Shown: positions 2,402 to 51,040, numbered from the stretch's first letter. The stretch is DNA of 64,000 nt from Alphaproteobacteria bacterium (GCA_965205265.1 CBDBGH010000003.1:3200001-3264000); one strand, 5' to 3'. Program-made: numbers and translations. Notes: generated by a model from the letters alone, not told the origin.

Positions 2402-3557
2402 GGTAACGCGCCCGGCGCGGGTTCGTTCGACGGCGCCGAGCCACTGGAACTTCTCGCGGTTTCTGGGGCGTGTTGTGCAGCTTGAGGACGAGCAGGGGCT
2501 GGTGTCCGCCATGATCGAGAGCCTGCGGGCGGCGCTGTTCGCCGCGTTGCCGGACTTCGGGCGTCACCTCGGCTACGACGGCAAGGCGCTCGCGAGCCAC
2601 TCGACGGGCCGGGTCGGCAAGGACAAGGGCAAGACCTCGGACCCCGACGCCGACTGGGGCAAGCACGAGACGGGCGGGGTGGACGCCAGGACCGGCGCGG
2701 TGTGGAAGAAGGTGAAGTCGTGGTTCGGCTACGGGCTGCACCTGATCGCCGACACCGATTACGAGGTTCCGGTGGCCTTCGAGGTGACGCGCGCTTCGGC
2801 CTCGGAACCCAGGGTGCTGTCCGGGATGCTGGAGGAGCTGTTCGCAAGGGCGCCGGAGATCGCCGGGCGCTGCGCCGACTTCAGCGCCGACCGCGGTCTC
2901 GACGATGCCCGCCTGAAGGCGCGGCTGTGGGACCGGTGGACCGCCCGCCCGCAGATCGATACACGGCTGATGTGGCGGGTGGAGAAGCAGGAGCCGAGAT
3001 ACGATCCGGCGCAGCCGATCACGCGGCCGCTGTTCCCCGACCGCGCCGATGTCATCGTTCACGACGAGCGCGGCCGGGTGTCCTGCGTCTGTCCCGGGAC
3101 CGGCGAGGTCCGCGCCATGGCGTTTCAGGGGTTCGAGGCTGATCGAGGCCGCTGCGGCACGCTCAAATACCGCTGCCCGGCAGCCGCCTTCGGCTTCGCC
3201 TGCGCCGGCAGCCGGGCCTGCCACCGGGCCGGCGGGGTCAAGCCCGGAGACCATGGCCGCATCCTGCGCATCGACCTCGACAGCCACGACCGGCGCATCT
3301 TCACCCCCACGCCTTGGGGCAGTCCGTCATGGCGGCGCGGCTATAACCGCCGCTCGGCCATGGAGCGGATCAACAGCCGCCTCGACAACAGCTTCAACTT
3401 CGAGACCCACTACATCCGAGGCCGCGCCAGGATGAAGACCCGCCTCGCCCTCGCCCTGGCGGTGATGATGGCGATGGCTCTCGCCCAGGCCCGCGCCGGC
3501 CGCCCCGAGCGCATGCGTTCCCTGGTCGGCGCCGTGCCGTATCTCGACACCGGATGA
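2402..3557 (+). pseudogene. DDE transposase (IS5/IS1182-like), 5' part cut off by IS66
   Basis: YDG..SDPDADWG..WFGYGLHL..SADRG..YNRRSAMERINSRL DDE motifs. Upstream of 2402 the frame runs into IS66 sequence. Confidence 0.8.
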
Positions 3558-3793
3558 CCGCTCATCCGCCTCCCGACAATCCTGCCCGACCCCGCCGCCC
3601 GACGGCAGAGGGGAAGACACGCCCGCACGCCAGACAATCTTCCGGTAATCGTACTTGTCAGGCCCCGGAAGCCCGTATCCTGCCCGGTGGGGAAGCGGGC
3701 CGGACGATATTCGACCGCCAAAATCGAACCGGCGACAGCCAAAAATCACCACAGCGCACATTTCTCGGTGGGTGCACGTCGCATTTGTGAGAT

Positions 3794-5176
3794 TCATGGT
3801 ATTGCGCCGGCTCGTCGTTCCCAGAAGTCGTCGAAGCGATTGCTCTCGACGGCGCAGCGCAGGGCGATGATGGCGTTGGCGCCGTTGACGGTCCAGCGCA
3901 TGCCTCCCTGCTTGAGGCGGGCGCCGACGATGTTCTTGCAGCCGCCCTCGACCACGCCGCTGGCCACGCACAAGCCCATCGCGCGGAACTTCGGGTAGTT
4001 CATGCGCTCGCGGTTGTTGGTGAAATACTCGGCGTTCTTGCGGGCGTTCTCGCAAGTTTCGGCATGGCCCTTGAGGGCGGCGATCACCTCGTCGACGCGG
4101 CCCTCGTCGAGTTCCTCGCGCCGCTTCCCGGCCCATCGCTCACCGATCTCGCTGCCGGTCCCGTAGATCGCCTTGGCTGCGTCGAACAGGTGGCCCTTGG
4201 CATGGAAGATGTCGACGATCTGGATGGCGTCGGGGAAGTGCTCATCGGCGAAGTTCCAGATCCACGGCGCGCCGTCGCCGAGGATGACCCGGCGCTCGGC
4301 CGTGTCGAAGCCGCGGCGTTCGGCCTCGCGGATGACACGCCGGGCGAAGGGCGCGGGCTCGGGGTCGAACTCGCGGGTGGCGATGGATTCGATGGCGGCG
4401 TTGTAGGTGGCGGAGCCGGGGTCGCGCACCGGACGCCCCTCCCTGTCGACGGTCTCCGCCGACCACACGACGGCGAGCTTGGCCTCGCGGGTGCTGGCGG
4501 AGCCGTCGGGCTGCTTGCCCGCGCGGCCCTCGACCTCGGTCTTGCGCGCCGGCACGCCGGTGCCGTCGAGGCCGAGATAGAGGGTGGGGGCGTCGGACGG
4601 CTCGGGTTCGATCACGCGGCATTCGTCGCCTGCGATCTCTCGCCCGAGCGCCTCGGCATGGCGTTCGACCGTCTTCGGCGCGACAGCCAGGCCTGCCAGT
4701 TCGCGCAACAGGGCGCTGGAGCCCTCGAAGCTGGTACGGGCAGCAGCAACGCCGATCATGCGCAGCGCCGCCGGTGAGAGGAAAGTATCTTGCATGCCGA
4801 GGGTTCGATCACGCGGGCTGAAGCCGCGGTGGCAACGGTCGCAGTGATACCAGGCGCGCTCCAGCGTCAGAGGGCCGAGAGCGGTGGTGAAGGTCTTGGG
4901 CCGGCGGCCGGCGAAGCGCGCCTCGCCGCCGCACGCACACGACAGCCACGGTCCCCGGTTGTCGGAACGGTCGGCATTGAGCCTGTGGGCGACGGCCTGC
5001 CCCATGATCTGCAACGCAACCCGCCGCGCTTCGATCTCGATCGCCTGGAAGTCATCGACGACGCCCGCGCCGATCAGCCACTCGACCTCGGCCTCGACCT
5101 CCTCCGCGATCGCTGCGTCGAGACCCCCCTTTTTCCCGGCGCGGCCGGCTTGTCCGCGTCCAGCCTGGCATCGCAT
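3794..5176 (-). CDS. ISKra4 family transposase, probably expressed by -1 frameshift from the upstream ORF
   Basis: LDGTG, GDGAPWIW, VDIFHA and SGVVEGGCK..RLKQGGMRW motifs; slippery AAAAAGGGGGG at 5124-5134. Confidence 0.85.
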   Translation of the reverse strand: MRCQAGRGQAGRAGKKGGLDAAIAEEVEAEVEWLIGAGVVDDFQAIEIEARRVALQIMGQAVAHRLNADRSDNRGPWLSCACGGEARFAGRRPKTFTTALGPLTLERAWYHCDRCHRGFSPRDRTLGMQDTFLSPAALRMIGVAAARTSFEGSSALLRELAGLAVAPKTVERHAEALGREIAGDECRVIEPEPSDAPTLYLGLDGTGVPARKTEVEGRAGKQPDGSASTREAKLAVVWSAETVDREGRPVRDPGSATYNAAIESIATREFDPEPAPFARRVIREAERRGFDTAERRVILGDGAPWIWNFADEHFPDAIQIVDIFHAKGHLFDAAKAIYGTGSEIGERWAGKRREELDEGRVDEVIAALKGHAETCENARKNAEYFTNNRERMNYPKFRAMGLCVASGVVEGGCKNIVGARLKQGGMRWTVNGANAIIALRCAVESNRFDDFWERRAGAIP

Positions 5177-16640: not shown

Positions 16641-17096
16641 CTACACCGTGCCCGTCGAGCCGAAGCCGCCTTCGCCGCGCTCGGTCGCGTCCAGTTCCGC
16701 GCATTCGCGCCAGGCGACGCGGGGAACGGGGTGGAGGACGAGCTGGGCGATCTTCATGCCGCGTTCTATGCGGATGGGCTCCGAGCCGGCGTTCAGCACG
16801 ATGATCTGGAGTTCGCCGCGATAGTCGGAATCGATGGTGCCGGGGCTGTTGGGCAGCATCAGCCCGCGGCGCAGCGCCAGGCCGGAGCGGGGCCGTATCT
16901 GCGCCTCCCAGCCCTCCGGCACGGCGAGGCGGAGCCCCGTCGGCACCAGCGCGCGCGCGCCGGGGGCAAGCTCCAGCGGCTCGTCCTCCGCCACCGCCGC
17001 CGCGATGTCGAGGCCGGCGCTGCCGGGCGTGGCGTATGCCGGCAGGCCCGGCGCATGGGGCAGGCGCTGGATGCGGACCTCGACCGGCTCCGTCAT
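16641..17096 (-). CDS. dut: dUTP diphosphatase
   Basis: SAGLD, QIRPRSGLA, GTIDSDYRGE and RGEGGFGSTG motifs. Confidence 0.97.
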   Translation of the reverse strand: MTEPVEVRIQRLPHAPGLPAYATPGSAGLDIAAAVAEDEPLELAPGARALVPTGLRLAVPEGWEAQIRPRSGLALRRGLMLPNSPGTIDSDYRGELQIIVLNAGSEPIRIERGMKIAQLVLHPVPRVAWRECAELDATERGEGGFGSTGTV

Positions 17097-18352
17097 GCGC
17101 CGGCGGCGCCAACGCCGCCAATCGTAACGTCCGCCGCGTCCGGCGCGGCGGCGAACCGGTCGGCAATGCGGAGCGCCAGGCGTTCGGCCACTTCGGTCTT
17201 GCTCGCCGGCGGCCAGTCCTCCACGCGATCCTCCTCGTCGATGAGGTGGATCGTGTTGCGCTCGCCGCCGAAAACGCCCGTGCCCGGCGACACGTCATTA
17301 GCGAGGATCCAGTCGCAGCCCTTGCGCCGGCGCTTGGCGCGGGCGTGCGCGACCGCATTCCCGGTCTCGGCGGCGAAGCCGACCACGAGCGGCGGGCGGC
17401 GGTTCTCCAGACGGGCGAGCCGGTGGAGGATGTCCGGATTCTCGGCGAGCGCCAGCGCGGGCAGGCCGCCGTTTTCCTTCTTGAGCTTCTCGCCGGCGGC
17501 CTCGCGCACCCGCCAGTCGGCGACCGCCGCCGCGCAGACCGCGATGTCCGCCGGCAGCGCCGCCATGCAGGCGTCCAGCATCTCCCGCGCCGTCTCGATC
17601 CGGCGGATTTGCACATGCGCGGGGTCGGGCTCGTGCGTCGGGCCGGTGACGAGCACCACTTCCGCGCCGTGGCGGGCGAGCGCGCCGGCGATCGCATGGC
17701 CCTGCTTGCCGGAGGAGCGGTTGGCGATGTAGCGCACCGGGTCTATCGGCTCCCAGGTGGGGCCGCTGGTGACCACCGCGCGCCTGCCCGCGAGCACGCC
17801 CGAGGCGCGGCCGGCCAGCGCGTTCTCTATGGCGGCGACGATCTCCTCGGGCTCCGCCATGCGTCCCGCGCCCGTCTCGCCGCAGGCGAGGTCGCCCGCC
17901 CCCGGCCCGACCCGCAGCACGCCGCGCCGCTCCAGCAGCGCCATGTTCGCCTGCGTCGCGGCATGGCTCCACATCTCGACATTCATCGCGGGCGCGACCA
18001 GCACCGGCTTGTCGGTGGCGAGCAGGGCGGTCGAGGCGAGGTCGTCGGCGAGCCCGGCCGCCATCTTCGCCATGAGGTCGGCGGTGGCCGGGGCGACCGC
18101 GACAAGGTCCGCCTCGCGCGAGAGCCGGATATGGCCCATCTCGCTCTCGTCGGTGAGCGAGAACAGGTCCCGGTACACCTTGTCCTCGGTGAGCGCGGCG
18201 AGCGAAAGGGGGGTGACGAACTCGGCCCCGCCGGCGGTCAGCACCGCGCGCACCGCCGCGCCCCGCTCGCGCAGCCGGCGCACGAGGATCAGGCTCTTGT
18301 AAGCGGCGACGCCGCCCGAGACGATCAGCAGAATGCGTTTGCCGTCCAGCAT
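17093..18352 (-). CDS. coaBC: Phosphopantothenoylcysteine decarboxylase/ligase
   Basis: GGVAAYK, PAMN, DPVRYIANRSSGKQG, VGFAAET; next to dut. Confidence 0.97.
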   Translation of the reverse strand: MLDGKRILLIVSGGVAAYKSLILVRRLRERGAAVRAVLTAGGAEFVTPLSLAALTEDKVYRDLFSLTDESEMGHIRLSREADLVAVAPATADLMAKMAAGLADDLASTALLATDKPVLVAPAMNVEMWSHAATQANMALLERRGVLRVGPGAGDLACGETGAGRMAEPEEIVAAIENALAGRASGVLAGRRAVVTSGPTWEPIDPVRYIANRSSGKQGHAIAGALARHGAEVVLVTGPTHEPDPAHVQIRRIETAREMLDACMAALPADIAVCAAAVADWRVREAAGEKLKKENGGLPALALAENPDILHRLARLENRRPPLVVGFAAETGNAVAHARAKRRRKGCDWILANDVSPGTGVFGGERNTIHLIDEEDRVEDWPPASKTEVAERLALRIADRFAAAPDAADVTIGGVGAAGA

Positions 18353-18486
18353 GGAACCCGGTTTTAGTCCTCTTGGGCGCGGGGGGGAAGCATTCGCGTC
18401 CCGGCCTGCATTCCGGTCGAAGCCGGAATTCGTCGCCCCGGACACCGCCCGGCCTCCATGTCGTCATGCCCGGACGCCCCCCGCCC

Positions 18487-19220
18487 GTCATGGCCGGACT
18501 TGTTCCGGGCATCCATTTCCGCCACCGCAACAGTCCCGAACGAGATGCCCGGAACAAGTCCACTGCTGTCCCGTTCAGCCATTGGGCGAGGCTGAACGGG
18601 AGTCCGCCGGGGGTTTCGGGGGTGCGCGGCGTCTGCGATCCGCCCCTTGCCCGTGAGGCCCGAACGCCCCCCTTCGACAGGCTCAGGGCAGGCTCTTTCG
18701 TCATACCCGGACTTGTTCCACGGCTGTCCGGTTTAGCCATCGGGGGGAGCCGAACGGGGTGTCGGGAGGCACCGCGTCTGCGATCCGCCCCTTGCCCGTG
18801 AGGCCCCAACGCCCTCCTTCGACAAGCTCAGGACAGGCTTCTCCGTCATACCCGGACTTGTTCCGGGTATCCACACGGCCGCCCGGCTGAGCCGCTTGAG
18901 AGAGATACCCGGAACAAGTCCGGGTATGACGATATGGGGCGGGTATGACGATATGGGGCGGGTATGACGATATGGGGCGGGTATGACGATGTGAGGGTCG
19001 GGCATGACGATATGGGGGCCGGGCATGACGACTTGGGGGCCGGGCCGCCGGGCGTCGATCCGGGTCCCGATCCCGCCGAACCCCTCGAAACCCGGTTGAA
19101 TCCAAGCCATGCGCCCTGCCCGCAAATCCTGAACCGGACAGCAATGGACTTGTTCCGGCCATCCATTTCCACCACCGCAACAGTCCCGAACGAGATGCCC
19201 GGAACAAGTCCGGCCATGAC
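18487..19220. repeat. Composite REP/REPIN locus with a nested inverted-repeat-bounded insert
   Basis: REP doublets, a 64-bp direct repeat (18497-18560, 19147-19210), two ~150-bp tandem units and a 19-bp tandem array (18921-19044). Confidence 0.85.
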
Positions 19221-19252
19221 GGTGTGAGGTCATTACGAGAGAGGACGCCGGG

Positions 19253-20761
19253 TCAGTCGAACAGGATCGCCGCCAGCAGGATCAGCAGGGCGAGGCCGCC
19301 GAGAAGGCCCTGGATCTGGACCGGAATGCCCCGCCGGCGCGTGCTCTCGCTCTCCGCGATGCGCTCCAGCGCCCGGTCGATCCGGTCCATGGTGACGAAG
19401 AAGCGGTCCATGCGCCCGCGCAGCTCGGACGCCGCATGCCGGGCGCGGGTGACCGGGTGGAGCCGGTCCAGCATCCAGTCCTCGATCAGCGGGCGCGCCA
19501 TCTCCCATATGTTCACATCCGGGTTGAGCCGCCGGCCCATGCCTTCCGCCATCAGCATGGTCTTCTGGAGCAGCAGCAATTGCGGTTGGGTCTCCATGCG
19601 GAACTGCGCCGTCACGCGGAACAACTGACGAAGCAGGCGGGCGACGGAAATCTCGTTCAGCGGCCGTTCGAGGATCGGCTCGCCGATGGACCGCGCCGCC
19701 TGGGCGAACAGCGCCTCAGACTGGTCGGCGGGGACGTAGCCGGCGCGGAAATGCACCGCCGCCACGCGGTCGTAGTCGCGCGAGAGGAAGCCCAGCAGCA
19801 TTTCCGCCAGATATTCCCGCGTCGGGCGGTCGAGCCGGCCCATAATGCCGAAATCCACCGGCACGATGGCGCCGTCGGGAGCCACGAAGATATTGCCCGC
19901 ATGCATGTCGGCGTGGAAGAAGCCGTCCCGGAACACCTGCTTGAAGAAGACCTCGGCCGCGGTCGCCATGATGGCGTCCGGGTCGTGCCCGGCGGCCCTG
20001 AGCGCGTCCACTTCGTCCACCGGCAGGCCCTCCACCCGCTCCAGGGTCAGCACCCGCCGCGAGGTGCGCCGCCAGTCCACCGACGGGACCCGGAAATGCT
20101 CCTCCTCGCTGAAATTCGCTGCGAGCTCGGTGGCGGCGGCGGCCTCCAGGCGCAGGTCCATCTCGATGCGAACGCTCTCCGCGAAGGTCTGCACGACATC
20201 GACCGGGTGCAGCCGCCTCGAAAACGGCGCCAGGCGCTCCAGCCAGCGCGCCACCCAGAGGAACAGGCGGAGGTCGTTCCCTATGGCCTGCTCTATGCCC
20301 GGCCGCAATATCTTGACCGCCACCGCGGCGCCCTCCGGCGTCCTCGCCAGATGGACCTGCGCGATGGAGGCGGCCGCCACGGCTTCGGTCTCGAACTCCG
20401 GAAACAGCTTTTCCAGCTTCTGCTCGAACTCCGCCTCGATGCGCTTGCGCATGGTCTCGAAGGGCAGGGCCGGCAGATGGTCCTGCAGGTCGGCGAGGTC
20501 GTCCGCCACGTCCTCGCCCAGGAGGTCGGCGCGGGTCGAAAGCGCCTGTCCGAACTTGACGAAGGTCGGCCCCAGGTCCCGCAGGGCGGCGGCAAGCCGC
20601 TCCCCCCGGCGGCGGCCCGGGCGCTTGCGGCTGACCAGGCGCGCCAGCATGGCCGGGGTCTCCAGCCCCTGGGCGAGCTCCAGCGGCCAGAGCGCATCGT
20701 GCCGGGCGAGCGTCCAGCCGATGCGTCCGAGACGCAGGACGTGGCGCGCGAAATCCAGCAC
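19253..20761 (-). CDS. ubiB: Ubiquinone biosynthesis kinase-like protein UbiB
   Basis: LGPTFVKFGQALSTR, AAASIAQVH, VAVKILRP, FFHADMHAGN, DFGIMG. Confidence 0.96.
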   Translation of the reverse strand: MLDFARHVLRLGRIGWTLARHDALWPLELAQGLETPAMLARLVSRKRPGRRRGERLAAALRDLGPTFVKFGQALSTRADLLGEDVADDLADLQDHLPALPFETMRKRIEAEFEQKLEKLFPEFETEAVAAASIAQVHLARTPEGAAVAVKILRPGIEQAIGNDLRLFLWVARWLERLAPFSRRLHPVDVVQTFAESVRIEMDLRLEAAAATELAANFSEEEHFRVPSVDWRRTSRRVLTLERVEGLPVDEVDALRAAGHDPDAIMATAAEVFFKQVFRDGFFHADMHAGNIFVAPDGAIVPVDFGIMGRLDRPTREYLAEMLLGFLSRDYDRVAAVHFRAGYVPADQSEALFAQAARSIGEPILERPLNEISVARLLRQLFRVTAQFRMETQPQLLLLQKTMLMAEGMGRRLNPDVNIWEMARPLIEDWMLDRLHPVTRARHAASELRGRMDRFFVTMDRIDRALERIAESESTRRRGIPVQIQGLLGGLALLILLAAILFD

Positions 20762-20762
20762 G

Positions 20763-21506
20763 TCAGAGGCGCCAGCCGCGATGCAGGGCGACAATCCCGC
20801 CCGAGAGGATGCTCCAGCGCACCCGGCCGAAGCCGGCCGCGCGCATGGACGCCGCCAGCGCTTCGCGGTCGGGGAAGCGCGCGATGCTCTCGGCGAGGTA
20901 GCGGTAGGCGTCCGCGTCGCCGGCCACCAGCGCGCCGAGCCTGGGCAGCACGCCGAAGGCGTAGCGCTCGTAGAGGGCCCGGAGCGCCGGCGCCTCGACA
21001 TGCGAGAACTCCAGGCAGAAGAAGCGCCCGCCCGGCTTCAGCACCCGGCGCATCTCGGCAAGCGCCCTTTCGCGGCCGGTGACGTTGCGCAGGCCGAAGG
21101 CGACGGTCACCGCGTCCTGGCTCATGTCGGCGAAGGGCAGGGCCTCGGCGTCGGCCACGGCCCAGCCGACATCGAGGCAGCCCCGGTCGAGCGCCCGGTC
21201 GCGCCCGGCCACGGCCATGTCCTCGTTGATATCGACGACGACGGCCTGCGCGCCCTCCGCGGCGGCGGCGGCGGCAATGTCCCCGGTGCCGCCGGCGACG
21301 TCCAGGAGCGCCATGCCGGGGCGCGGCCGCAGCGCGCGGACCAGCGCCGCCTTCCAGAGCCGGTGGACGCCGAGACTCATCAGGTCGTTCATCAGGTCGT
21401 AGCGGGGCGCCACGCTGTCGAACACCCCGCGCACAAGCCGGGCCTTGTCCCCCCTCGGCACGTCCCGAAAGCCGAAATCCACCGAATCGTCCGCTGGCCC
21501 GCTCAT
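20763..21506 (-). CDS. ubiE: Ubiquinone/menaquinone C-methyltransferase
   Basis: VFDSVAPRYDLMNDLMSLG, LDVAGGTGD, AFGLRNVT, YRYLAESI. Confidence 0.97.
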   Translation of the reverse strand: MSGPADDSVDFGFRDVPRGDKARLVRGVFDSVAPRYDLMNDLMSLGVHRLWKAALVRALRPRPGMALLDVAGGTGDIAAAAAAEGAQAVVVDINEDMAVAGRDRALDRGCLDVGWAVADAEALPFADMSQDAVTVAFGLRNVTGRERALAEMRRVLKPGGRFFCLEFSHVEAPALRALYERYAFGVLPRLGALVAGDADAYRYLAESIARFPDREALAASMRAAGFGRVRWSILSGGIVALHRGWRL

Positions 21507-38179: not shown

Positions 38180-40095
38180 CCTGACTTCGACGGTTGGGCT
38201 GACTTCTGACCGATCTCGCGTCTGGAGTTTTCAGTAAAGCCAATGAGTTGGCAGTTGCGGTGCGGTCAAGCTGCGTTGTAGTGCCTAGTAAATCTTTGAG
38301 ACTGTCAATGCCTCCGCCACGCGCTACACTCCCCCCATGTTCGTGCGCATCAAGACCTCCCCCAACAGCCCGCGACGCTCGGTCCAGATCGTCGAGGCCG
38401 TGCGCGACGGCGGCAAGGTCCGACAGCGCATCGTCCGCCATGTCGGCGTGGCCATGGACGAGGACGAGCTCGAGCGCCTGAGGCAGCTCGGCGAGTACGT
38501 CAAGGCGAAGCTGGAGGACGAGCGTCAGCCGGCATTGTTTGCGCCCGAGAAGATCGCTGAGCAGGCGATCCGTGTCGGCCGCCGGGGGGACGGCAAGGAG
38601 GAACTCCCGGTCGACCTCAAGCAGCTTGAAGAGGAGCAGCGCCTGATCACAGGCATCCACGAGGTCTATGGCGAGATCTACCGGCTGCTGGGCCTCGACG
38701 CGCTGCTGCCGCGCTCGCGCTACCGGGCCTCCCATGACGCGCTGTTCCATGTGGTGATGGCGCGGGTAGCCAACCCCGACAGCAAGCGGGGCAGCGTGCG
38801 CCGGCTCGAGGAGGACTTCGGCGTGAGTCTTCCGCTCGAGAAGGTCTACCGGATGATGGATCAGCTCGACGCGACGGTGATCGAGCGACTGCGCACGCGC
38901 GTCGGCGAGGCGAGCCGGTCGCTGCTGCCGGAGCCGGTCGCGATCCTCTTCTTCGATTGCACCACGCTCTACTTCGAGACGGCCGCCGAGGACGAGCTTC
39001 GCCAGCACGGCTTCAGCAAGGACGGCAAACACAAGGACTCGCAGGTTCTGCTGGCGCTGATGGTGACGCGCGAAGGGCTGCCGATCAGCTACGAGGTCTT
39101 CCCCGGCGCCACCTACGAGGGACACAGCATGGTCCCGGTCCTGCAGGACATGCAGCGCCGCCACCAGGTGGAGCGCACGGTATGCGTGGCCGACCGGGGC
39201 ATGCTGAGCGCCGACAACCTCGACGCCATGGACGCCATCGGCGGCGAGTATGTCGTCGGCGCGCGGCTGCGCAAGCTGCCGCTCGCGCTGCTGGGGCAGG
39301 TTCTCGACCCCGGGACCTATGCCCCGCTGGAGGGCTCACAGGACCGCCGGGTCGGCGAGTGGGAGTACAAGGGCCGTCGCCTGATCGTCGTCTTCTGCCC
39401 CCAGCGCGCACGCAAGGACGCGCACGAGCGCCGCCATCAGGTGGAACGCCTGCTCGACAGGCTGGCCCGCAGCGACAATCCCAGGGAACTGCTCTCCAAT
39501 CACGGGGCGAAGCGCTTCATCGCCGTCGAGGGCGACGCACGGCTCACGGTGAACCCGGAGAAGATCGCCGAGGCCGCACGATGGGACGGGCTCACCGGCG
39601 TCATCACCAATCTGCGCGACGCGCGCGTCACCGAAGTGATGGCTCACTACCAGGGGCTCTGGCAGGTCGAGGAGAGCTTCCGGATCACCAAACACGACCT
39701 GAAGATACGTCCCATCTGGCACTGGAACCCGGACCGGATCCGCGCTCACATCGCCATCGCCTTCCTGGCCTTCGCCTGCGTTCGACACCTTGCGTACCGC
39801 GTCGCCATCCAGAAGCGGCGGATGTCCCCGGAGGTCATCCGCTCCGCCCTCGTCCACCGCCAGTGCTCCCTGCTGCGCTGTCGGCAATCGGGCAACCGCT
39901 ACGTCATCCCCTCGAAGCCGACACCGGCGGCGGAGCAGATTTACGCAACCATGGGGCTGCCCCTGACGATCACCCCGTATCAACTCGCCTGACCGTCGAC
40001 GAAGCACGGCTCGAAGAAATGCCGGATGTAGTGCCTAGCCGAAATGAGAACCAGGCAATATCAACTACTTATGCGAATCAACCGTCGAAGTCAGG
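38180..40095 (+). mobile_element. IS1634 family element, copy 1 (1916 bp)
   Basis: Inverted repeats CCTGACTTCGACGGTT / AACCGTCGAAGTCAGG. Confidence 0.93.
38337..39992 (+). CDS. IS1634 family transposase
   Basis: FFDCTTLYFE, GFSKDGK, VADRG, WQVEESFR..K..L.IRPIWH..RIRAH. Confidence 0.93.
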   Translation: MFVRIKTSPNSPRRSVQIVEAVRDGGKVRQRIVRHVGVAMDEDELERLRQLGEYVKAKLEDERQPALFAPEKIAEQAIRVGRRGDGKEELPVDLKQLEEEQRLITGIHEVYGEIYRLLGLDALLPRSRYRASHDALFHVVMARVANPDSKRGSVRRLEEDFGVSLPLEKVYRMMDQLDATVIERLRTRVGEASRSLLPEPVAILFFDCTTLYFETAAEDELRQHGFSKDGKHKDSQVLLALMVTREGLPISYEVFPGATYEGHSMVPVLQDMQRRHQVERTVCVADRGMLSADNLDAMDAIGGEYVVGARLRKLPLALLGQVLDPGTYAPLEGSQDRRVGEWEYKGRRLIVVFCPQRARKDAHERRHQVERLLDRLARSDNPRELLSNHGAKRFIAVEGDARLTVNPEKIAEAARWDGLTGVITNLRDARVTEVMAHYQGLWQVEESFRITKHDLKIRPIWHWNPDRIRAHIAIAFLAFACVRHLAYRVAIQKRRMSPEVIRSALVHRQCSLLRCRQSGNRYVIPSKPTPAAEQIYATMGLPLTITPYQLA

Positions 40096-41474: not shown

Positions 41475-41559
41475 GTCATGCCCGGACTTGTTCCGGGCAT
41501 CCACTTCCACCGCTGCGATGGCCCCCGAGGGAGATGCCCGGAACAAGTCCGGGCGTGAC
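41475..41559. repeat. REP doublet (REPIN-like), uninterrupted copy
   Basis: GTCATGCCCGGACTTGTTCCGGGCATCC ... GATGCCCGGAACAAGTCCGGGCGTGAC. Confidence 0.85.
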
Positions 41560-49124: not shown

Positions 49125-51040
49125 CCTGACTTCGACGGTTGATTCGCATAAGTAGTTGATATTGCCTGGTTCTCATTTCGGCTAGGCACTACATCCGGCA
49201 TTTCTTCGAGCCGTGCTTCGTCGACGGTCAGGCGAGTTGATACGGGGTGATCGTCAGGGGCAGCCCCATGGTTGCGTAAATCTGCTCCGCCGCCGGTGTC
49301 GGCTTCGAGGGGATGACGTAGCGGTTGCCCGATTGCCGACAGCGCAGCAGGGAGCACTGGCGGTGGACGAGGGCGGAGCGGATGACCTCCGGGGACATCC
49401 GCCGCTTCTGGATGGCGACGCGGTACGCAAGGTGTCGAACGCAGGCGAAGGCCAGGAAGGCGATGGCGATGTGAGCGCGGATCCGGTCCGGGTTCCAGTG
49501 CCAGATGGGACGTATCTTCAGGTCGTGTTTGGTGATCCGGAAGCTCTCCTCGACCTGCCAGAGCCCCTGGTAGTGAGCCATCACTTCGGTGACGCGCGCG
49601 TCGCGCAGATTGGTGATGACGCCGGTGAGCCCGTCCCATCGTGCGGCCTCGGCGATCTTCTCCGGGTTCACCGTGAGCCGTGCGTCGCCCTCGACGGCGA
49701 TGAAGCGCTTCGCCCCGTGATTGGAGAGCAGTTCCCTGGGATTGTCGCTGCGGGCCAGCCTGTCGAGCAGGCGTTCCACCTGATGGCGGCGCTCGTGCGC
49801 GTCCTTGCGTGCGCGCTGGGGGCAGAAGACGACGATCAGGCGACGGCCCTTGTACTCCCACTCGCCGACCCGGCGGTCCTGTGAGCCCTCCAGCGGGGCA
49901 TAGGTCCCGGGGTCGAGAACCTGCCCCAGCAGCGCGAGCGGCAGCTTGCGCAGCCGCGCGCCGACGACATACTCGCCGCCGATGGCGTCCATGGCGTCGA
50001 GGTTGTCGGCGCTCAGCATGCCCCGGTCGGCCACGCATACCGTGCGCTCCACCTGGTGGCGGCGCTGCATGTCCTGCAGGACCGGGACCATGCTGTGTCC
50101 CTCGTAGGTGGCGCCGGGGAAGACCTCGTAGCTGATCGGCAGCCCTTCGCGCGTCACCATCAGCGCCAGCAGAACCTGCGAGTCCTTGTGTTTGCCGTCC
50201 TTGCTGAAGCCGTGCTGGCGAAGCTCGTCCTCGGCGGCCGTCTCGAAGTAGAGCGTGGTGCAATCGAAGAAGAGGATCGCGACCGGCTCCGGCAGCAGCG
50301 ACCGGCTCGCCTCGCCGACGCGCGTGCGCAGTCGCTCGATCACCGTCGCGTCGAGCTGATCCATCATCCGGTAGACCTTCTCGAGCGGAAGACTCACGCC
50401 GAAGTCCTCCTCGAGCCGGCGCACGCTGCCCCGCTTGCTGTCGGGGTTGGCTACCCGCGCCATCACCACATGGAACAGCGCGTCATGGGAGGCCCGGTAG
50501 CGCGAGCGCGGCAGCAGCGCGTCGAGGCCCAGCAGCCGGTAGATCTCGCCATAGACCTCGTGGATGCCTGTGATCAGGCGCTGCTCCTCTTCAAGCTGCT
50601 TGAGGTCGACCGGGAGTTCCTCCTTGCCGTCCCCCCGGCGGCCGACACGGATCGCCTGCTCAGCGATCTTCTCGGGCGCAAACAATGCCGGCTGACGCTC
50701 GTCCTCCAGCTTCGCCTTGACGTACTCGCCGAGCTGCCTCAGGCGCTCGAGCTCGTCCTCGTCCATGGCCACGCCGACATGGCGGACGATGCGCTGTCGG
50801 ACCTTGCCGCCGTCGCGCACGGCCTCGACGATCTGGACCGAGCGTCGCGGGCTGTTGGGGGAGGTCTTGATGCGCACGAACATGGGGGGAGTGTAGCGCG
50901 TGGCGGAGGCATTGACAGTCTCAAAGATTTACTAGGCACTACAACGCAGCTTGACCGCACCGCAACTGCCAACTCATTGGCTTTACTGAAAACTCCAGAC
51001 GCGAGATCGGTCAGAAGTCAGCCCAACCGTCGAAGTCAGG
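49125..51040 (-). mobile_element. IS1634 family element, copy 2 (inverted, no target duplication seen)
   Basis: Same inverted repeats and length (1916 bp) as copy 1; identical translated transposase. Confidence 0.93.
49228..50883 (-). CDS. IS1634 family transposase
   Basis: Identical 551-aa translation to 38337-39992. Confidence 0.93.
   Translation of the reverse strand: MFVRIKTSPNSPRRSVQIVEAVRDGGKVRQRIVRHVGVAMDEDELERLRQLGEYVKAKLEDERQPALFAPEKIAEQAIRVGRRGDGKEELPVDLKQLEEEQRLITGIHEVYGEIYRLLGLDALLPRSRYRASHDALFHVVMARVANPDSKRGSVRRLEEDFGVSLPLEKVYRMMDQLDATVIERLRTRVGEASRSLLPEPVAILFFDCTTLYFETAAEDELRQHGFSKDGKHKDSQVLLALMVTREGLPISYEVFPGATYEGHSMVPVLQDMQRRHQVERTVCVADRGMLSADNLDAMDAIGGEYVVGARLRKLPLALLGQVLDPGTYAPLEGSQDRRVGEWEYKGRRLIVVFCPQRARKDAHERRHQVERLLDRLARSDNPRELLSNHGAKRFIAVEGDARLTVNPEKIAEAARWDGLTGVITNLRDARVTEVMAHYQGLWQVEESFRITKHDLKIRPIWHWNPDRIRAHIAIAFLAFACVRHLAYRVAIQKRRMSPEVIRSALVHRQCSLLRCRQSGNRYVIPSKPTPAAEQIYATMGLPLTITPYQLA

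Follow-up and report, generated by a model that had tools for sequence, protein, structure and literature searches.

A compound MITE (miniature inverted-repeat transposable element) of Alphaproteobacteria bacterium (GCA_965205265.1), located between the genes coaBC and ubiB in a stretch of 64,000 nucleotides (CBDBGH010000003.1:3200001-3264000, hereafter the window, whose numbering is used for all positions given without a prefix), lies in a doublet of two inverted repetitive extragenic palindromes (REPs) and is flanked by a direct repeat of 64 bp. The family to which this element belongs ordinarily duplicates 9 bp inside one REP, and the ends of the 64-bp repeat fall on the positions used in those ordinary insertions, one in each REP of the doublet. 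We consider that there is about an even chance that the long duplication was produced by a single aberrant transposition event using the two REPs of one doublet.

The 64-bp Duplication and Its Target Doublet

The direct repeat occupies positions 18497-18560 and 19147-19210 with 62/64 identical nucleotides (2 mismatches), or 66 nt (18496-18561 and 19146-19211, 97% identity) if one ambiguous base per side is counted. Between both copies there is an insert of 586 bp (18561-19146) that starts with CACTGCTGTCCCGTTCAG and ends with CTGAACCGGACAGCAATG, and its termini together with the adjoining REP core form 35-nt arms which are 91% complementary. Each copy of the repeat runs from the 9-mer GACTTGTTC of the left REP, made up of the loop and 2 bp of stem per side, through an inner arm, a 30-nt spacer and a second inner arm to GAACAAGTC, the same 9 bp in the inverted right REP. 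The remainder of the doublet was not duplicated, namely the outer left arm at 18487-18496 (CGTCATGGCC G), which pairs at 100% with the right arm, and the outer right arm at 19211-19222 (CGGCCATGACGG). Since the outer arms (29 nt each, 18485-18513 and 19194-19222) are 100% complementary, removal of the insert and of one repeat copy restores an 84-bp REP doublet like that found at 41475-41559. The original prediction had described the insert with its inverted termini, the repeat with two mismatches and the doublet rebuilt on removal, and all of them were confirmed by repeat analysis.

The spacer between the REP arms was present only at these two places of the 5.70-Mb genome (98.98% complete), the next best BLAST match covering 15 nt. 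As this spacer is unique to the locus and the spacers differ among the 115 doublets of the genome, the repeat is a genuine local duplication and neither a product of chance nor a pair of REP doublets that arrived separately; independent doublets as its source were ruled out by the same unique spacer. In addition, the left junction (18532-18602) was spanned by a 71-nt unitig of run X19 with no differences, at a single-copy depth of 180 compared with 171-176 in the flanks.

Target Sites and Footprint of the MITE Family

A census with a strict 18-nt motif detected 75 termini in the genome. Sixty-nine of them adjoined GACTTGTTC or GAACAAGTC (with 1 mismatch at most) and two adjoined REP-like loops, giving 71/75 next to a REP or REP-like hairpin loop, while four were at non-REP sites. 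Termini at non-REP sites, which the original prediction had named as evidence against itself, form a minority (4/75), including those of the complete copy C3:636222-636584. The canonical copy (C3:2805020-2805382, 363 bp) opens with an 18-bp terminal inverted repeat (TIR) and a left part, continues with an internal REP doublet and two 19-bp repeats, and closes with a right part and the second TIR, the sequence CAYKGCTGTCCGGTTYAG being found at both ends. The sizes of the copies were ~307-386 bp, or 507-731 bp for the compound ones, with variation in indels and in repeat number and no transposase homology inside.

Twenty-eight independent two-ended copies were recovered from the genome, a 29th being left out for lying in a 24.5-kb segmental duplication. 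A 9-bp direct duplication (at least 8/9 matching) flanked 21 of the 28, six had none, and the copy studied here was the only one with 64 bp. The duplicated 9 bp corresponded in 20 of the 21 to the 5-nt loop of a REP plus 2 bp of stem per side; the exception was the complete copy C3:636222-636584, at a non-REP site, with the 9-bp duplication CGCCGGCCG. Among 16 two-ended copies of congeners, 11 had 9 bp, five had no duplication and none had a longer one, and when 33 pairs from the other alphaproteobacteria scanned were added to these 16 and to the 28 of this genome, the long duplication was still unique to the studied locus. All these results showed that the family inserts into REP hairpins with a 9-bp duplication centred on the loop, through cuts symmetric about the dyad, and that the element is a MITE whose footprint is fixed at 9 bp and which very strongly prefers REP loops. 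They also agree with the original prediction of an enzyme family that cuts symmetrically in REP palindromes, the 9 bp being 2 bp of stem, 5 nt of loop and 2 bp of stem.

That prediction went further, proposing that duplications take their length from the REP spacing. If the transposase always cut at both REPs of a doublet, the length of the duplication would equal the distance between REP arms, and the studied locus is the sole support for this behaviour. Against it stand the 9-bp duplications inside one REP (counted among the 21/28 copies here and the 11/16 of congeners, many of them in doublets) and the same 9 bp next to the autonomous copies found intact elsewhere and next to the non-REP copy. 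The spacing rule is already refuted as a rule, and a transposase with that general habit has practically no probability.

Flanks of the type CGTCAT...ATGACG were found in 10/28 two-ended copies and in 6/238 intact empty REPs, which suggests a preference of the insertions for long CGTCAT arms or else a secondary change. Another footprint was seen in about one in five two-ended copies, in which the 9 bp of the right flank are the reverse complement of those of the left flank, some of them in an apparently single REP. In this genome such inverted 9-mers flank C3:1728067-1728412, 2362314-2362994, 2816197-2816558, 3610719-3611406, 3620503-3620863 and 520844-521207, and elsewhere they were found at loci L015, L016, L029, L033, L035, L041, L044 and L081. 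It is possible that they come from arm conversion in the long inverted repeat formed by REP stem, 9-mer and TIR, or from inversion between copies; the footprint is a recurrent one in the family.

Two further observations were made on the same genome. An element of 2.57 kb with IS66-like ends (GTAAGCG..., C3:2143285-2145857) was also located in a REP loop, with the 8-bp duplication CTTGTTCC, and its other examined copies were outside REPs. The large segmental duplications, one of 24.5 kb (C3:36590-61081 and 5407582-5432139) and another of 14.9 kb (at either end of contig C2), could be genuine repeats, or else contig ends that overlap in the assembly.

Origin of the 64-bp Duplication

Ordinary insertions of this family result from a top-strand cut at the left edge of the 9-mer and a bottom-strand cut at the right one. 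The ends of the 64-bp duplication correspond, to the base, to the left edge of the 9-mer in the left REP and to the right edge of the 9-mer in the right REP, both being canonical positions with the polarity of fill-in. Under a single aberrant transposition, one strand transfer would have taken the usual top-strand site in the left REP (CCG^GACTTGTTC) and the other the usual bottom-strand site in the right REP (GAACAAGTC^CGG, in top-strand notation), the half-sites used being the two that bear the long CGTCAT arm, and fill-in of the 64-nt 5' overhangs would have duplicated all the sequence between the cuts. The doublet may have been transiently extruded, perhaps partially, as a long hairpin in which the outer arms were brought together, mimicking one long-stem REP; this extrusion step is pure conjecture. 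Long duplications made by related DDE enzymes offer a precedent, such as those of IS1634 and IS1549 (8-514 bp; PMC2266710) and those of the IS1634-family element resident in this genome (6-573 bp). As for the choice of sites, each protomer of the IS4-type transpososome might pick its own REP half-site with a preference for the long CGTCAT arm, and as the best half-sites of the doublet are 64-66 bp apart and on opposite strands, a duplication of doublet length would result. We propose this tentatively and rate it somewhat short of an even chance.

Several data weigh against a single transposition event. The case is a single one, with no recurrence among the 28, 16 and 33 pairs to back a mechanism, and everywhere else the enzyme of the family acts as a transposase of fixed 9-bp stagger. 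Insertion into the stem of a fully extruded doublet hairpin was considered and rejected, as it would leave the core between two inverted copies of the element, unlike the arrangement at the locus. The original prediction had suggested looking for an empty coaBC-ubiB site in relatives; neither the REP doublet nor a MITE was present between these genes at any of the 11/11 congener loci obtained from a 41-genome search, a metagenome scan for the unique 30-nt spacer gave 0 matches, and the Logan contigs of 4 runs, built on 31-mer unitigs that break in repeats, contained no empty doublet. The contigs of run X24 skip 18395-19253, as the congeners do, their uncovered parts being no evidence. Because neither the empty doublet nor a single-REP insertion allele was found, the order of events at the locus is unobserved. 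Furthermore, the repeat copies differ at 2/64 positions, so the event is old and later change is possible.

Recombination between copies, evident in the family, also counts against a single event and would by itself give a different history. In this alternative, insertions of the same MITE, in the same orientation and with ordinary 9-bp duplications, would have entered the left and the right REP in separate lineages (chromosomes or strains), and a crossover inside the MITE would have joined both alleles, with a product that can be derived to be identical by sequence to that of one step. REP loops are hot targets, as stated above for 71/75 termini. Copy C3:520844-521207, a recombinant lying between two different doublets, has the same doublet-MITE-doublet layout with two different spacers, and 6/28 copies lack a direct duplication. 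The MITE copies are mosaics of subfamilies, the studied one being canonical on the left, B-type in the middle and canonical on the right, and Tobes and Pareja put the imperfect direct repeats of ISRm22 down to inter-copy recombination (PMC1525189). However, two independent insertions of the same orientation in one doublet and an exchange between chromosomes would be required, whereas two-ended copies occupy only ~15/222 doublet REPs and a doublet occupied in both of its REPs was not seen among the copies examined in this genome and its congeners. Neither parental allele was found in the 11 congener loci, the Logan unitigs or the metagenome scan. This origin is rather unlikely in our opinion, although one transposition step and recombination between insertion alleles give the same product and the sequence cannot tell them apart.

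The duplication could also have preceded the MITE, if slippage or repair at the palindrome had first made a tandem copy of the 64-bp core and the element had then entered at its junction, or could have followed an insertion with the ordinary 9-bp duplication through aberrant gap repair. Palindromic doublets are prone to slippage, and template switching between REP arms and TIRs could plausibly account for the inverted 9-mer flanks mentioned above (~1 in 5 copies). Nevertheless, a tandem core has no REP hairpin at its junction (GAACAAGTC|GACTTGTTC), and an insertion there would have lacked a duplication, a primary state never seen in the family. Had the template been switched across the palindrome, the spacer would be inverted, and the second copy is direct; a tandem doublet core lacking the MITE was not found in this genome; and the exact coincidence of the duplication ends with the transposase cut positions is unexplained without the transposase. 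For these histories the probability is low.

The Cognate IS4-Family Transposase

A scan for the 18-nt terminus in one genome per species yielded at least 108 loci. Among the loci listed, terminus pairs 1259-1276 bp apart were found in several alphaproteobacterial assemblies, and autonomous insertion sequences (ISs) of this length that share the TIR and encode a 380-aa transposase were identified at L048, L076, L094, L099, L110 and L039, at least, and at L139 in congener G010. The L048 element (3501-4759, 1259 bp) has the same TIRs as the MITE and a 380-aa open reading frame (ORF) whose product matched NF033592 (NCBIfam IS4 family) with 243.5 bits (cut-off 115), PF01609 (DDE_Tnp_1) with 105 bits, and DUF4372. 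Congener G010 carries four intact copies with a transposase 49% identical to the L048 protein, L139 (1270 bp) being placed in a REP with a 9-bp duplication. Positions 305-363 of the MITE align to the IS end at 78-81%, and the homology of the right end extends over 59-88 bp at 73-81%, so the MITE is a deletion derivative and not a mere TIR look-alike. As judged by these alignments, the MITE (~363 bp) is shown to descend from a 1.26-kb IS4-family IS of IS4Sa type with 18-bp TIRs and a 380-aa DDE transposase.

The autonomous copies of other hosts are inserted in the hosts' own REP hairpins, whose stems differ, with the same geometry of 9 bp centred on the loop. Their ends (CATTGCTGT and CACGGCTGT), length (1259-1276 bp) and 9-bp duplication agree with the IS4Sa descriptors, which are CA------T, 1150-1750 bp and 8-10 bp; on these descriptors and on pairwise identities the autonomous relative can be called IS4Sa-like.

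The original prediction called the element a MITE mobilised in trans, and this was supported by its TIRs, its multiple copies, the lack of a transposase gene inside and a cognate transposase that is not intact in this genome. The copy enclosing a transposase that it had suggested looking for was absent here and present, intact, in congener G010 and in other alphaproteobacteria. For IS4_1, 0/68 in this genome were above the cut-off, the best (101.9 bits) lying on a plasmid element that is unrelated. No two termini were detected in the genome that bound 600-5000 bp and have a duplication of at least 8/9, even at 6 mismatches per 18-nt terminus, and none of the resident multi-copy IS families (IS66-, IS21-, IS1634-like and others, as judged by their ends) matched the TIR. 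A transposase remnant does exist at C3:1981754-1981960, where the terminus CACGGCTGTCCGGTTTAG in a REP is followed by ~200 bp matching the end of the congener's intact IS, where the C-terminus of the transposase is kept in 46 codons. In congener G009 two longer terminus pairs were discarded as autonomous copies, since they enclose ordinary genes (a 355-aa ORF at L027 and a GST-like ORF at L030). With no intact cognate transposase in the genome, mobilisation in trans would belong to the past, and the MITE copies found here are probably fossils of it, now immobile.

Structure of the Compound MITE

The insert (18561-19146, plus strand) was assigned to the non-autonomous derivatives of an IS4-family (IS4Sa-like), REP-targeting IS on the basis of the family census and of the TIR and ~60-88 bp of one end that it has in common with the autonomous relatives, this homologous stretch being at its right end. 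Its partition was made by BLAST against the canonical MITE. The left TIR (CACTGCTGTCCCGTTCAG, 18561-18578, plus strand) was delimited by repeat analysis and by the terminus census, and it opens unit A (18561-18718, plus strand), which corresponds to positions 1-159 of the canonical 363-bp MITE (alignment 18561-18719, 95.6%) and ends in the GACTTGTTC of the internal left REP. Unit B (18719-18958, plus strand) is the left part of a copy from a diverged 'B' subfamily, aligning at only 77% (18723-18958 against MITE 5-255), and has its own inward-facing terminus CACGGCTGTCCGGTTTAG at 18719-18736, preceded by GACTTGTTC. A REP doublet inside the MITE (18844-18931) has 28-nt arms, 100% complementary and 32 nt apart. 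The insert also contains a tandem array of the 19-bp unit CGGGTATGACGATATGGGG (18921-19031, plus strand) with 5.6 copies, the canonical MITE having ~2, and a right part of canonical type (18999-19146, plus strand; MITE 216-363, 95.9%) with the right TIR CTGAACCGGACAGCAATG at 19129-19146. The compound make-up with its second terminus, the internal doublet and the array were absent from the original prediction.

An intact MITE nested in another MITE was found at C3:1631703-1632433, in the internal left REP of the host copy and with a 9-bp duplication, and we read unit B as the likely remnant of a nested insertion into the internal REP of unit A. In the simplest history, a canonical copy would have landed at the locus and received a nested B-type copy in its internal REP; the homologous internal doublet regions of both would then have recombined, with loss of the right end of B and part of the host copy, and the 19-bp array would have expanded to 5.6 units. 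According to this history the outer termini on the two sides, and with them the 64-bp duplication, come from the first, canonical copy.

The coaBC-ubiB Intergenic Region

The flanking genes are both on the minus strand. The downstream one, coaBC (17093-18352), directs its start toward the repeat mosaic and matched TIGR00521 (coaBC_dfp) with 396.9 bits (cut-off 219.7), and the upstream one, ubiB (19253-21001), directs its stop codon toward the mosaic and matched TIGR01982 (UbiB) with 556.9 bits (cut-off 487.55). Further short repeat modules, such as CGTCATGCCCGGACGCCCCCC, which has degenerate counterparts at 18652 and 18797 within the MITE, were observed to the left of the doublet (18395-18486), and the entire 900-bp spacer between the genes is therefore a mosaic of repeat modules. 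At 8 of the 11 congener loci this spacer has ~45-90 bp, so the REP and MITE mosaics have stretched it from 45-90 bp to 900 bp. Unrelated inserts were present at the other three loci, of ~260 bp in two (L004 and L009) and of ~1 kb in one (L011, of congener G011), the latter ending in four tandem copies of a ~31-bp unit (GACCGCGTCGCGCATCGACGCATC...). An Rfam search of 18200-19500 gave no family at the gathering score and only sub-threshold matches to microRNA hairpins, on the internal REP doublet.

Comparison with Known REP-Associated Elements

Insertion into REPs by an IS4-family element has been described for ISRm22 of Sinorhizobium meliloti, all the copies of which lie within REPs with the insertion point on the axis of the palindrome (2006; PMC1525189). 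Its direct repeats were given as 6 bp (PMC1525189), and De Palmenaer et al. placed it in IS4Sa, a group with ends CA------T, a length of 1150-1750 bp, direct repeats of 8-10 bp and conserved left and right target arms (PMC2266710). ISRm22 resembles the family reported here in its IS4-family DDE transposase and its REP targeting. Among named proteins of the plasmid collection, the L048 transposase was nearest to those annotated as ISRel1-family (47% identity) and ISRm16-family (40%), the copies of S. meliloti being also 40% identical. A copy on pSymB of S. meliloti, a candidate for ISRm22, has 1299 bp and the TIR CAGGGCTGTCCGGGGAAA, whose core GGCTGTCCGG is common to the TIR of the MITE family; it sits on the axis of a REP palindrome between the two copies of a 9-bp duplication (CCGCCTGCG), so that 9 bp were measured against the 6 bp published for ISRm22. 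In contrast to ISRm22, the element described here is non-autonomous, a derivative of 363 bp with a REP doublet inside, is inserted in host REPs of a different sequence and has a 64-bp duplication in the studied copy. REP targeting by this IS group was already published, and it is the MITE with a REP-doublet cargo and the doublet-spanning duplication that seem new: neither is described in the parts of the ISRm22 and IS4Sa papers considered here (PMC1525189, PMC2266710).

IS1397 and ISKpn1 (IS3 family), and ISPpu9, ISPpu10, ISPa11 and IS621 (IS110 family), also insert specifically in REP palindromes (PMC1525189), but they belong to other transposase families with other chemistry. Their duplications are short or absent, that of ISPsy8 being 3 bp, and the parts of the same source considered here describe no MITE derivative with a REP doublet for them (PMC1525189). 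REPINs, that is, REP doublets mobilised by REP-associated tyrosine transposases (RAYTs), the system treated in PMC3116915, PMC3333891 and PMC2817692, are similar to both the target and the cargo of the MITE, two inverted REPs with a ~30-nt spacer that form a hairpin. Unlike the REPIN/RAYT system, 38/115 doublets of this genome are inside a DDE-type MITE, and PF01797 had no match in it. An element of IS200/IS605 type, with subterminal hairpins, a Y1 transposase and neither TIRs nor duplication, was ruled out, given that TIRs and 9-bp duplications are present and no Y1 transposase was found.

IS1634 and IS1549 make long and variable duplications with an IS4-related DDE enzyme, a trait comparable to that of the studied locus and for which no mechanistic model is proposed in the consulted parts of PMC2266710. 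The window itself contains an IS1634-family IS of 1916 bp (38180-40095 and 49125-51040) with the TIR CCTGACTTCGACGGTTG and a 551-aa transposase (NF033559, 341 bits, cut-off 100). Fifty-four full-length 1916-bp copies were counted on C3, with duplications of 6-573 bp (454 bp for that at 38180-40095) and none in 8 copies, and the 326-bp duplication made by the copy C3:2360200-2362115 took in part of a MITE. The resident element displays the known IS1634/IS1549 long, variable duplication at a high copy number. The MITE differs from it in an unrelated TIR, in a duplication fixed at 9 bp in all but the studied copy, and in that both ends of the long duplication are on symmetric recognition sites; mobilisation of the MITE by the resident element was ruled out by the unrelated TIRs and the fixed 9-bp duplication.

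REP Doublets in the Genome

The genome contains 238 intact REP hairpins with canonical loops, among them 111 left and 111 right doublet members and 6 single long-stem REPs. Eighty-three of the 115 doublets have a 66-bp arm distance, and one doublet, folded as single-stranded DNA, formed a single hairpin with a 29-bp stem (-41.8 kcal/mol, z = -10). The search for RAYT/Y1 transposases (PF01797) that gave 0 matches in this genome was positive in 6/14 control genomes. The multiplication of REPs that had been foreseen in the original prediction was upheld: the MITE carries its own doublet, the 38 doublets counted in MITE copies being within 330 bp inside a terminus. As the cargo includes a doublet, each jump added one, and the 64-bp event added one further doublet core.

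If the duplication did arise in one step, target half-sites could be captured independently, which would provide a testable model for long duplications in IS4-related elements. The locus would be a natural case of a long duplication with both ends on defined recognition sites, and would be of use in explaining those, long and variable, of the related IS1634 and IS1549. Doublets would also be both carried and duplicated by a MITE that seeks REPs, a self-reinforcing loop in a genome without RAYT. The MITE with its doublet cargo accounts for about a third of the doublets of a genome where RAYT was not found, and this suggests a second route for the spreading of doublets besides RAYT.

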